Below, piece by piece: positions 25,901 through 40,181 of a stretch of DNA of 64,000 nt. A program made the translations under genes and the position numbers. Numbering within the stretch: position 1 is the stretch's first letter; every line of letters starts with the position of its first letter. The stretch comes from Verrucomicrobiota bacterium. GTDB lineage: Bacteria > Verrucomicrobiota > Verrucomicrobiia > Opitutales > Coraliomargaritaceae. Location of the stretch: NCBI GenBank assembly GCA_039815375.1, contig JBCBZJ010000006.1, positions 32,001-96,000 on the forward strand, in the 5' to 3' direction. Under the pieces are notes generated by a model. That model saw only the letters and a program-made list of their open reading frames with translations. It was not told the DNA's origin and did no database searches.

Positions 25901-26277
25901 AGCTTACCAGCTTGTATATGAGATTGTTCTCATGGCAAAGCCAAGTTCCTATGCCGTGTTGCTGTGGTATTAATACTATAAGTGTGATTATGTTCACTTT
26001 ATTTGAGTTAAGAGAGAAGGTTCCAGATTCGTTCTATTGACGTTATGGCAAGAGGCTCGCTAAGTTGATAGTTAGTGATTCTTGCCCAAAATGAATGCTC
26101 TAAAGCCTTAAAATCGCCTTTGAGACCAATGGTGGGAGCATGGTTGGCGTCTACAATAAATATCCGAAAACGTATGAAATGAAGACCTTCATACTTAAAA
26201 ATAAAAAGACTCCTAAATTACCTGTAAACCCTGACGAACTAAGGGTCTATGGGCGGTTTGGGATCGCATTTTTCTCG

Positions 26278-26319
26278 CAGTTCGTAAGTTTTGGGGTGTG
26301 ACTGATAATACTGTTGGAC
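26278..26319 (+). mobile_element. attI-like recombination site A
   Basis: Ends in GTTGGAC, the reverse complement of the GTCCAAC R'' box of the first attC. 35/38 identical to 39225-39262. Confidence 0.75.
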
Positions 26320-26328
26320 GAAGAAAAA

Positions 26329-26784
26329 ATGAAACCAAAACCGATCATCATCTTGTTGCTAATCTTCATAGCGATGAATTTCAGCTATCAAATGGATGAG
26401 GAAGGAAATACCAGCTTCACCATAGGAGATTCTACAGAGTTTCACGAATTCTACTTTTTCGACAGCTTCACCCTATTGTTAGTCGCAGCAGCGGTATATT
26501 TTCTTTACCGAAGCCATTCAGAAAATGGGGCATCCAAAAAACGACTCAGAGACTTAAAAAGAAACGAAACGAATGCACAACTAGCTGGGATTTGTTCAAG
26601 TATTTCTGAGCACTATGACATACCGATATGGGTCTCTCGAGCTTCGTTTGTCCTTTTGGGAATCGCTGATGGCATTGGCGTTATAATCTATATCGTTCTC
26701 TGGATCTTCATGCCATCTGAGGGCAAATCCACAGAAACCAAAGACACAAAGTCCAACCAGTCGGGAGATGACAACTCCGAGTAG
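26329..26784 (+). CDS. Integron cassette 1: PspC-domain membrane protein
   Basis: LKRN..NAQLAGIC..I.E.YDI....R..FVL....YIVLWIFMP.E; the stop codon lies inside the attC. Confidence 0.8.
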   Translation: MKPKPIIILLLIFIAMNFSYQMDEEGNTSFTIGDSTEFHEFYFFDSFTLLLVAAAVYFLYRSHSENGASKKRLRDLKRNETNAQLAGICSSISEHYDIPIWVSRASFVLLGIADGIGVIIYIVLWIFMPSEGKSTETKDTKSNQSGDDNSE

Positions 26785-26825
26785 CGCTGCCGCGCTACTC
26801 TCCGCGCATCCCCTTTACGTTCGAC
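26751..26825 (+). mobile_element. attC site 1
   Basis: GTCCAAC...GTTCGAC imperfect palindrome (GGAGATG / CATCCCC; GAGTAGCG / CGCTACTC). 64/67 identical to attC 4. Confidence 0.9.
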
Positions 26826-26832
26826 GAAAGAA

Positions 26833-27405
26833 ATGGATAACCCAGAACTAGTCATAGCTCTTCTAGCAACTTTCACCTCACTGGTTGCTACCGCTATCGC
26901 TTACTCGGCTTATCGGTCTCAGACTGACCCAGACGTAATAGTCTATTTGGAACACGACGAAAAGAGACCTTCGTTAATCCTTCTTGTTATCGAAAATCGA
27001 GGCAGTGGTGTAGCTCATGATGTCCAATTCGAGATACCCGATGATTTCCCTAGCGATCCGATAGGTATAACCGCTACAGGAAAAAAGAGCTTTGAGCGTA
27101 TGACTGAAGGACCACTTATTTCGGGTATCAAATCTTTACCACCAAAAGGGAAAAGAATTCTTAACTGGGGGCAGTATGGTGGAATCTACGATTACATGGG
27201 TGCTTACCACAAAACAATTAAAGTGAGATTTAAGAGAAGGAAGTTGTTTGGTCTGGACGACCAAACTTTTGAAACCGAATCGGACATTGAAGTCATTTCC
27301 TATTCTCGAACCGACGCCAGCAATAGATCAGAAGCAACTCACTTAAAGAAAATCTCAGAGACCCTCGTGGGAATCGAAAAGCAACTGAACAAGATGAACA
27401 AATAG
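26833..27405 (+). CDS. Integron cassette 2: hypothetical protein with N-terminal TM helix
   Basis: 190-aa ORF starting 8 bp after GTTCGAC and ending at GTCGAAC. Confidence 0.8.
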   Translation: MDNPELVIALLATFTSLVATAIAYSAYRSQTDPDVIVYLEHDEKRPSLILLVIENRGSGVAHDVQFEIPDDFPSDPIGITATGKKSFERMTEGPLISGIKSLPPKGKRILNWGQYGGIYDYMGAYHKTIKVRFKRRKLFGLDDQTFETESDIEVISYSRTDASNRSEATHLKKISETLVGIEKQLNKMNK

Positions 27406-27465
27406 TCGAACCAATCGCTGCTGGCAGTGTCGCTAACGCGCCATCGCCAGAGCTCGACGTTAGGT
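27405..27465 (+). mobile_element. attC site 2
   Basis: GTCGAAC-CAATC-GCTGCTGGC...GCCAGAGC-TCGAC-GTTAGGT. Confidence 0.88.
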
Positions 27466-27537
27466 GAAAAAATAATAACTCCCTAGGACTAAAAAAAGTG
27501 CAAGCATCGAACCCAAAGCATAAGGAATAAGCACACT

Positions 27538-27930
27538 ATGGAAGACGCTCAATTTATCACTTTCTTGTCTGCACTCATTGGTGGAGGAATAGCCGCTATA
27601 GCTTCGATAGTTACTATCATTATCGGGCGTATATTCGACGAACGAAGAGAAAGAAGAAAAATGGTCTTCGACCTCGCTTCCGCTCACTACAAGGGGAGAA
27701 AGGCAGACGCACAAGTCACTGCAAATGGAACAGGACGGCCCCAGTTCGTAGAACCCTTTGAAGATTTCATCGTCTATGCTGATGAAATGTGTAGAATTGT
27801 CGAAGGAAAGACCTTCAAGAGTAAGAGCTTCTTGCGTCGATCCAGAGGAGCTAAGGAGCTTCGAGAGATTATAAGCCGAAACTCCGACAATAAGGACCAA
27901 AATGGCAAGCAAGACATACACAGCCCCTAG
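27538..27930 (+). CDS. Integron cassette 3: hypothetical protein with N-terminal TM helix
   Basis: 130-aa ORF with an AAGGA RBS, lying between GTTAGGT and ACCTAAC. Confidence 0.75.
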   Translation: MEDAQFITFLSALIGGGIAAIASIVTIIIGRIFDERRERRKMVFDLASAHYKGRKADAQVTANGTGRPQFVEPFEDFIVYADEMCRIVEGKTFKSKSFLRRSRGAKELREIISRNSDNKDQNGKQDIHSP

Positions 27931-38765: not shown

Positions 38766-38769
38766 ATGC

Positions 38770-39025
38770 AAAAATGCTGCCTCTGGTCCTGTGCTGAAGA
38801 ATCAGTTCAGAGCGCTTTCCATTGCTCAACGGCCCAACCTGGGACGTTCGGGTGGGTCTGGCGCGATTCCTCCATGAAGGCTCGTGCGCTGTTAAAATCT
38901 ACTAGGGATGGTCCCTACAGTAGACCAAATACCATCTTAGTGTAATGTGATAGGCTTCTTTTGTGCTGTCTTCCCGCTGATCCTGATAAGGCAATATCCT
39001 AGTGAGGAAAACTAAATGAAGCCAT
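38770..39025 (-). pseudogene. intI: Probable decayed 5' fragment of an integron integrase
   Basis: Manual translation across stops and frameshifts: MASFSFPH*..., TKEAYHITLRWYLVYCR, DFNSARAFMEES..GWAVEQWK, ALN*FF. From recollection this resembles the N-terminal extension of Opitutales IntI. Divergent from attI B, as intI genes usually are. Confidence 0.55.
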
Positions 39026-39224
39026 AAATCGCCAAAAATAAAATAGTCAAAAGATCAAATTAACGACAGCAATTTTACAAACGTTCGTATTAGTAAGGGC
39101 CAAAAACTTACGGACTGGATATTCATTTCATTGAGCGTTTAGCTAGCGCTGATAAACTGATCAATCTTGACGAACTAGGGGCAGGAGAGCTATCAAGCCC
39201 CTGTGAATGGCATCTGAATCATCT

Positions 39225-39266
39225 CAGTTCGTAAGTTTTGGGTTGTGACTGGTACTACTGTTATAC
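39225..39266 (+). mobile_element. attI-like recombination site B
   Basis: Ends in GTTATAC, the reverse complement of GTATAAC at 40079. Near-duplicate of site A. Confidence 0.8.
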
Positions 39267-39277
39267 GAAAAGAATTT

Positions 39278-40084
39278 ATGAAAATACCTAAAAAAGTAAT
39301 CGACCGTCTGCCTGCCCCGATCAAGCGATACACCCAAATTGCCGAAGAACAGAGATCAAGAGATGTTGCTGAGGCCGACACCGTTACCCTCGTCAAAGAC
39401 ATCATGGCGGACTGCTTCGGATACGATAAGTATAGCGAGCTTACCAGTGAGCAGCAAATTCGAGGAACTTACTGCGACCTAGCCATCAAAATAGAAAATA
39501 AAATTCAATTCCTCGTAGAAGTTAAAGCAGCAGGAATACAGCTGAATGATTCCCACGTAAACCAAGCCATTAATTATGGTGCGAATGAAGGAATAGAATG
39601 GGTCGTATTGACGAACGCACTCGACTGGCGTCTCTACCGCATTCGGTTTAGTCAACCGATAGAAAGAGAAGAAGTTACTTCATTCTCACTTGCCGAACTG
39701 AATCTGAAGAATCAGGACGACCTAAAGAAAGTATTTTTATTGTGTAGAGAAGGTCTATCGACCGGAGCGATGGACTCATTCCATCAGACAGCTCAGATTC
39801 TGAATCGACACACGATTTCTGAGATTATTCAGACTGATGCTGTAATCGGAGTTATCAGAAGAGAATTTAGAAAGCTTTTCCCCGATGTAAAAATCGACCC
39901 CTCAGACGTTTCCGACATGCTCGTAAACGACATACTCAAAAGAGAAGTGACCGAAGGCGATAAAGTGAAAGAAGCAAAAAGCCGGGTCAAGAAAGCAGCC
40001 AGAAAGCTAGAAAAAAAGAAAGAGAAAGCGGCACAGGCTAAGGAGGCAGCAGCAATTCAGCCATCTACTGAAAACTTGGTATAA
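39278..40084 (+). CDS. Integron cassette 4: HsdR N-terminal-like PD-(D/E)xK nuclease
   Basis: EADT, GYD, E..IRG..CDLAI, VEVK, QA.NY, W.VLTN. Confidence 0.85.
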   Translation: MKIPKKVIDRLPAPIKRYTQIAEEQRSRDVAEADTVTLVKDIMADCFGYDKYSELTSEQQIRGTYCDLAIKIENKIQFLVEVKAAGIQLNDSHVNQAINYGANEGIEWVVLTNALDWRLYRIRFSQPIEREEVTSFSLAELNLKNQDDLKKVFLLCREGLSTGAMDSFHQTAQILNRHTISEIIQTDAVIGVIRREFRKLFPDVKIDPSDVSDMLVNDILKREVTEGDKVKEAKSRVKKAARKLEKKKEKAAQAKEAAAIQPSTENLV

Positions 40085-40153
40085 CCAGACGGGAGATGGC
40101 AACTCCGAGTAACGCTGCCGCGCTACTCTCCGCGCATCCCCTTTACGTTACCA
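40079..40153 (+). mobile_element. attC site 4
   Basis: GTATAAC...GTTACCA; nearly identical to attC 1. Confidence 0.9.
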
Positions 40154-40158
40154 GCATC

Positions 40159-40181
40159 GCCGAGATTACCTCGGCTTTTTT
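40159..40181 (+). terminator. Intrinsic terminator closing the cassette array
   Basis: GCCGAG-ATTAC-CTCGGC-TTTTTT. Confidence 0.75.

Follow-up and report, generated by a model that had tools for sequence, protein, structure and literature searches.

The window analysed here, 64,000 nucleotides from a genome of the Verrucomicrobiota family Coraliomargaritaceae (G000, a 3.56-Mb assembly of 66 contigs in which the window spans C2:32001-96000), contains two putative integron attachment sites (attI), each loaded with gene cassettes. Site 1 (26278..26315) and site 2 (39225..39262), both on the plus strand, are copies of one 38-bp sequence, identical at 35 of 38 positions, and each ends exactly where a cassette begins, with crossovers at G26313|TT and G39260|TT. 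A preliminary description had pointed out the repeat, its position at the cassette starts and the lack of an intact integrase gene (intI) in the window, and our searches bear out all three. In a scan of the genome with a profile built from the same four sites that score highest in it, these sites reached 56.6-63.4 bits, far above the background of at most 13.7 bits; a degenerate inverted copy on the minus strand (39080..39117), with no cassette after it, scored 25.0 bits. Full copies outside the window lie at C2:22, where the motif stands at the contig start and heads about 14 cassettes, and at C11:421038, and a copy on C9 consists of the core only. An ATG follows the crossover at +16 (site 1) and +18 (site 2), and attC sites come after it. 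The edge at 26313 is supported independently by contigs from two other samples, which start cassette 1 exactly there with different DNA before it, parting from the window sequence at 26313-26315.

An alignment of 18 such sites, referred to below as docks, revealed two conserved blocks around a variable middle, and site 1 is identical to the column consensus. Nearly all (17 of 18) end in GTT or GAT, with GAT in five; several attC sites in G000 also have a GAT crossover instead of GTT (C2:1478-2264, C11:421785). The dock sequence has no predicted fold of its own, which would fit recombination by the integrase (IntI) in double-stranded form. The same motif adjoins a full-length intI in two relatives, G018 (intact, 436 amino acids (aa)) and G015 (one frameshift), at 340-400 bp from the intI start and with the gene on the opposite strand; in the metagenome contig L094 it lies beside 150 open intI codons. 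Other IntI clades are flanked by other attI types. On this comparative evidence the 38-mers are almost certainly real attI sites, as had been proposed.

The 10-bp box that opens the 38-mer recurs in inverted orientation upstream, at 26232..26241 (minus strand, 81 bp before the crossover of site 1) and at 39168..39177 (minus strand, 92 bp before that of site 2), while the degenerate copy at 39080..39117 holds a box at 152 bp. Among the scanned sites the box is found 35, 79-92, 152 and more bp upstream, with the 79-92 bp position occupied in nine of 13. We consider the inverted box at 26232..26241 likely, from its recurrence, to be a protein-binding site. Inverted boxes flanking the site might instead suggest an attG-like hotspot or the end of an insertion sequence (IS) or miniature inverted-repeat transposable element (MITE), the more so as cassettes are reported, in the accessible part of a study of the subject, to enter GWT sites without attI (10.1101/2022.09.11.507474). 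However, the motif occupies the canonical place beside intI in G018, G015 and L094, and no transposase open reading frame (ORF) or IS body with these ends was present at the sites examined; we find such an origin scarcely credible and rejected the IS/MITE reading of the boxes.

Array 1 comprises three plus-strand cassettes (26313-28005). Cassette 1 (26313..26821) encodes a 151-aa PspC-domain protein (ORF 26329-26784) whose stop codon falls within its attC (26755-26821); cassette 2 (26819..27461; ORF 26833-27405, 190 aa; attC 27409-27461) and cassette 3 (27459..28005; ORF 27538-27930, 130 aa; weak attC 27948-28005) encode proteins of no family. Array 2, 11 kb away, is a single plus-strand cassette, cassette 4 (39260..40149; ORF 39278-40084, 268 aa, HSDR_N_2 domain; attC 40083-40149). 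With attC sites taken from seeded BLAST, array 1 (three attC) fits the definition of attC sites clustered without an integron integrase (CALIN) and array 2 (one attC) that of a lone attC site without an integron integrase (SALIN); a complete integron would have a functional intI beside attI, and only stubs with stops and frameshifts are found here. A search of the four cassettes with PADLOC gave no match. ORF-less cassettes of about 300 bp with a long attC recur across arrays of the genome, some in tandem (C11:421073-421382, with similar ones on C4, C12, C28, C58, C62 and C63).

The window attC sites belong to repeat families that punctuate other arrays in G000. The bottom strands of attC 1, 2 and 4 form long stems (z -2.0, -1.6 and -0.9) and attC 3, the last of array 1, has a weak fold (-6.5 kcal/mol, z -1.4); none of the four is clearly better folded than shuffled sequences (z -0.9 to -2.0). 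Seeded BLAST replaced an ad hoc folding-based attC scan, whose 86 hits were mostly noise.

Both docks lie 240-380 bp from a decayed 5' stub of their own intI, back to back with it. The preliminary description had overlooked these remnants, which show that the sites did not originate without an enzyme. Stub 1 (25904..25933, minus strand) consists of a start codon, nine codons and a stop, the latter at codon 10. It was missed by a protein hidden Markov model (HMM), but its region aligns with the intI start and promoter of G015 at 67% over 103 bp (z 13; none of 200 shuffles as high). Stub 2 (38795..39022, minus strand) retains about 80 codons; its start is gone and the frame is interrupted by two stops and three frameshifts. 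It was detected by tblastn (E 6.7e-9, 38816-38973, minus strand) with queries from the clade formed by the integrases of G018, G015 and G010, which we call cognate, and is identical at 198 of 246 positions to the open 5' part of intI in L094. Searches of the window by tblastn with the integrases of contigs C51 and C24 found no remnant; only queries of the cognate clade did. Upstream of stub 1 lies a palindromic box (25981..25998, plus strand) that ends in GTTCAC and resembles boxes upstream of intI at C51:52836 and C33:41033, with others at about 80-96 of the window (minus strand), C30:12694 and C9:290. The genes beside two of these boxes are, as we take them, lexA-like (at the window start) and part of an imuABC-like operon (C30), and the box is likely a LexA-type operator of this lineage.

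The preliminary description had considered relics of a duplicated integron, and of this proposal the relics are supported and the duplication is not. Local copying of one integron to a position 13 kb away, followed by loss of intI from both twins, would account for docks that match at 35 of 38 positions, lie in the same orientation and share the type of their first attC. This last match is as close as had been described (26755-26821 and 40083-40149, 64/67, 96%), but the type makes up about 11 of the 59 attC-like matches listed in G000, and because it is so common there the match says little about common origin; we rejected it as evidence of twinning. The spacers of the two sites are only 51% alike, within the background range (42-56%), and the spacing of the boxes differs (81 bp at site 1, 92 and 152 bp at site 2). 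Moreover, site 1 is 82% like the C11 locus, and the stub and spacer of site 2 match L094. Local duplication is largely refuted by the spacer comparison and appears very improbable. Since the spacers are at background and each site has closer relatives elsewhere, it seems that two integrons decayed here with no copying between them, and we consider it very probable that the window sites are relics of two separate integrons of one clade.

Other signs of integrase decay accompany these stubs. Other IntI clades decay alike, with a 33-codon stub beside attI and an array at C33:40924-41270, an internally deleted intI with an array at C4:18625-19225 and intI fragments at C25:30460-30739. In L094 (178-723) the intI reading frame is interrupted after codon 150 by an attC joined at G|AT, as though the enzyme had cut its own gene, and such cutting at a secondary site could be one route to stubs. 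The stretch 25900-26103 is present a third time in run X1, possibly the source sample, on a contig outside the assembly; this copy shares the stop, has lost its start and hints that a platform was copied after its enzyme had died.

The motif was detected by BLAST in eight of 101 family genomes and by pattern search in nine of 401 genomes of the order (reversed-pattern control, 0/401); motif-bearing records are labelled Verrucomicrobiota and Opitutaceae. Scans of genomes and of metagenomes gave two matches each, one of the genome matches being the G017 locus again, and a scan of viral contigs gave none. In total we considered 21 sites in 10 genomes and looked for traces of intI within 0.8-2.5 kb upstream: two adjoin a full-length gene, three a remnant, two lack upstream DNA and at most 14 show no trace. 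The count leaves out a 20-bp match at G017:C32, the core-only C9 copy, the inverted copy at 39080 and the match in G243, which we judged to be tRNA-arm-like and rejected as a dock. On the suggested check of whether matches to the 38-mer precede cassettes, 12 of 17 foreign sites have attC-like matches on their downstream side and none has one upstream. G229 carries two docks 5.1 kb apart, as the window does. Two orphan docks lie in small integrative elements, one in G002 adjoined by a tyrosine recombinase gene, a helix-turn-helix gene and weak relaxase matches, and one in G018 with a Rep gene on one side and a tyrosine recombinase gene on the other. Downstream of the G002 dock (L082:7273-12448), TIR-domain and HNH proteins have PADLOC matches, and these downstream genes are possibly defence cargo.

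Which enzyme could serve such docks? The suggestion of an integrase elsewhere in the genome was correct insofar as G000 has an intact IntI, of another clade, whereas the cognate gene is seen only as 3' ends. Three genes exceed the TIGR02249 cut-off (265). The gene on C51 is whole (333 bits), aligns to the IntI4 structure 2A3V (E 2.6e-61) and retains the catalytic R-K-H-R-H-Y residues and the IntI insertion domain, while the attI beside it belongs to a different type whose core is similar; a contig end truncates the C10 gene, which is 95% like that of C51, and C24 has a distant gene of 322 aa. In a FastTree phylogeny of 19 proteins the cognate clade (support 1.0) is separate from C51 and C10. 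Of this clade, G000 holds 43 C-terminal codons at the start of C17 and at the end of C30, 79% identical to the G010 enzyme and 51% to C51. The two contig ends are identical for 141 nt, which is the overlap of nine of the 11 dovetailed contig pairs in the assembly, and we infer that the cognate intI is present twice, was collapsed and did not enter the bin. The full cognate IntI of this organism was absent from the results of two protein searches, one of which returned a relative's integrase that its source names as from Coraliomargarita parva.

The evidence that docks are used in trans comes from two pairs of homologous loci. In the first, the C11 locus and metagenome contig L093 agree at 96.8% over 531 nt, covering the upstream gene, the junction and the dock (40/41). 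Neither locus has an intI there, their first cassettes differ and the L093 cassette has no match in G000. In the second, the distal cassette and flank are common to G229 and G262 (95.2% over 1582 nt), whose front cassettes differ, one against three. The first cassette is bounded by attI and its gain or loss requires attI x attC recombination, according to the accessible part of PMC8946536; a change of first cassette thus implies integrase activity later than the loss of the linked gene, except where entire loci were replaced by those of donors sharing the junction. At the window itself, contigs of run X2 contain cassette 1 (216 nt, no differences) preceded by an attC-like end, and a dock 95% like dock 1 that leads into a different cassette start; run X3 provided no coverage. 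The satellite docking proposed earlier is supported at the two homologous loci, with front cassettes that differ in both pairs, and no more than hinted at for the window sites by these unlinked X2 contigs.

Given these comparisons, we favour, with some reservation, the view that cassettes continue to enter and leave the docks through an integron integrase whose gene lies elsewhere in the genome. Such an IntI would bind the dock in double-stranded form and carry out its recombination with folded attC sites, by which a first cassette would be gained or lost. The enzyme would most likely be of the cognate clade whose 3' end lies at the two contig breaks, and failing that it would be the intact one of C51; accessory binding would be the role of the upstream boxes, and the dock may double as a promoter for the first cassette.

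A wider version of this proposal, which we put forward only tentatively, is a distributed integron, in which enzyme-less attI platforms spread after the death of the integrase, some of them on small integrative elements with their own tyrosine recombinase, and would be filled by a remote IntI, even of another clade. One hint in this direction is a cassette of an orphan array in G262 that is 80% (234/294) like the first cassette of the only complete integron of that genome, which has another attI type; the X1 copy of the dock 1 region, with the same dead stub, may be another.

Several observations weigh against loading in trans. The cognate intI body is absent from the G000 assembly, and L094, which carries the dock of C2:1-59, has an intI broken after 150 codons by the attC joined there. 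Non-cognate attI/IntI pairs are generally inefficient, as stated in the available text of PMC8946536. Coverage of the X2 contigs is shallow (depth 2.2 and 4.5), the contigs are short and unlinked, and their copy of the dock differs at nine of 181 nt, so that it may be another locus. We found no second genome of the species spanning purF-purH. The 38-mer of site 2 matches that of L094 at 30 of 38 positions and is no better kept than the dead stub (80.5%). The 14 sites without intI trace are an upper bound, as the HMM missed stub 1 and remnants may be hidden elsewhere, and five of the 17 foreign sites have no downstream attC match, one site having a mutated crossover. In G229 (10 contigs, 97% complete) three docks coexist with intI pieces that are all broken, and no intact intI was found in G017 and G075.

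The docks of G229 without an intact intI imply that fossils exist too. If the two window integrons were fossils as well, both would have died when intI was deleted and their arrays been frozen, the 38-mer being kept by recent loss or by chance. The cognate intI that was not assembled intact, the genomes with docks and no intact intI, the short arrays (three cassettes and one) and the weak last attC of array 1 are all consistent with this, as is the observation, in the part of the source available, that Xanthomonas strains with the same intI lesion usually carry identical arrays (10.1101/2025.06.18.660453). It does not explain why two pairs of loci have the same enzyme-less junction and a different front, or why dock 1 equals the 18-site consensus when stub 1 has decayed past protein recognition, and we consider it unlikely. 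Satellite and relic had been offered as alternatives; the evidence points to both at once.

Conservation of the 38-mer might also reflect a domesticated promoter, kept mainly to drive the first cassette with a start near the crossover. The conserved blocks are 17-18 bp apart, like -35 and -10 hexamers, the middle is variable at constant length and an xATAAT hexamer occupies the -10-like position in 14 of the 18 aligned sites; class 2 integrons offer a precedent, with working promoters in the attI2 region and a dead integrase (PMC8876359, in the text accessible). On the other hand, the -35-like block matches at three of six positions only and recurs inverted upstream at a spacing of about 33 bp, as a binding site would, and site 2 has no -10-like match. 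Promoter scans of both platforms gave no excess over shuffles (1 against a mean of 1.1; 0 against 1.0), and the changed front cassettes would be left unexplained. We therefore regard promoter function as an improbable main reason for conservation. Such a role is compatible with loading in trans, yet could account for part of the conservation that we cite in its favour.

The arrays lie within a 14.7-kb stretch between a gene with Pfam GATase domains (23848..25761, plus strand), a glutamine amidotransferase that we take to be purF because of that domain and because purF usually adjoins purH, and purH itself (40462..42012, plus strand; Pfam AICARFT_IMPCHas). Comparison with 29 other loci, from 29 of 71 matching genomes, showed purH within 1.5 kb of purF in 10, three of them in the same genus, and because the two genes adjoin there the stretch is interpreted as an insertion. 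Between the arrays are six plus-strand non-cassette genes (28242..38765), including those for a TSP3-repeat protein and a 1736-aa Rhs-repeat protein, in which seeded BLAST found no attC; the G+C content of this block is 51% compared with 44% in the arrays. A paralogous Rhs-type block (C9:135-9599, corresponding to window 28242-39262) lies directly upstream of the orphan attI core on C9 and adjoins integrase-like and mobilisation-like genes. Array 2 is followed by a 190-bp tail (40150..40340, plus strand) that recurs behind other arrays in G000, with four further copies 74-82% identical (C5:742-914, C30:12370-12627, C56:15278 and 16852), and is present in one of 101 family genomes. At C17:290-340, close to the intI 3' fragment and a tRNA-Leu gene, is a partner end whose short A/G repeat is similar. 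Together, the tail and this partner end are possibly the ends of islands able to carry whole integrons. G018 has, about 4 kb downstream of its purF, an intI from another clade (C26:4947-10506), and the purF neighbourhood may attract integrons.

CALINs outnumber or equal complete integrons; integrase loss and mobilisation in trans have both been proposed in the accessible parts of the relevant papers (PMC4889954, PMC9024848 and the preprint of Loot et al., 10.1101/2022.09.11.507474). The window arrays resemble CALINs and SALINs in having attC sites with no working intI nearby, and differ in keeping attI, upstream boxes and a 5' intI stub. As far as the available text of those papers goes, CALINs are treated there mainly as cassette donors, whereas our comparison points to change at the dock. 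The pseudogene search of Cury et al. 2016 used C-terminal profiles at 50% coverage (PMC4889954), and attI recognition by IntegronFinder is confined to classes 1-3 (Neron et al. 2022, PMC9024848), as described in the portions available, so stubs and docks such as these would be missed and CALINs derived from decayed integrons may be undercounted. The lineage offers a defined non-class-1 attI, together with 14 natural examples that have no linked integrase and with pairs of matched loci, which make trans uptake and attI/IntI cross-talk directly testable. If orphan docks on mobile elements do harvest host cassettes, cassettes could spread without the cost of an integrase. The main texts we covered, mostly outside subscription journals and including accessible parts of PMC9668308 and 10.64898/2026.03.17.712381, contained no report of front-end turnover at an enzyme-less attI or of this attI type, and searches on integrons in Coraliomargarita and on multiple attI returned nothing; supplementary CALIN tables could contain further attI-headed cases.

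Three further known systems are close, each compared as far as its accessible text allows. Class 2 integrons also combine a dead integrase, the truncated IntI2, with an attI region whose promoters are kept (PMC8876359). They differ in that the lesion is a point nonsense mutation and the arrays are nearly fixed and carried on transposons. The transposon in question is presumably Tn7. In Xanthomonas, as here, the attI region and array outlast the decay of intI (10.1101/2025.06.18.660453), but mostly at one locus (ilvD) and with arrays that freeze, whereas matched enzyme-less loci here differ at the front. A Shewanella prophage carries a CALIN headed by its own second attI (2023, PMC9892861) and is thus like the window in having an integrase-less array behind a second attI. 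It is a single case with an intact cognate IntI in the same prophage and, in the text seen, no strain comparison, whereas the Verrucomicrobiota docks are lineage-wide and occupy many chromosomal and mobile-element loci.

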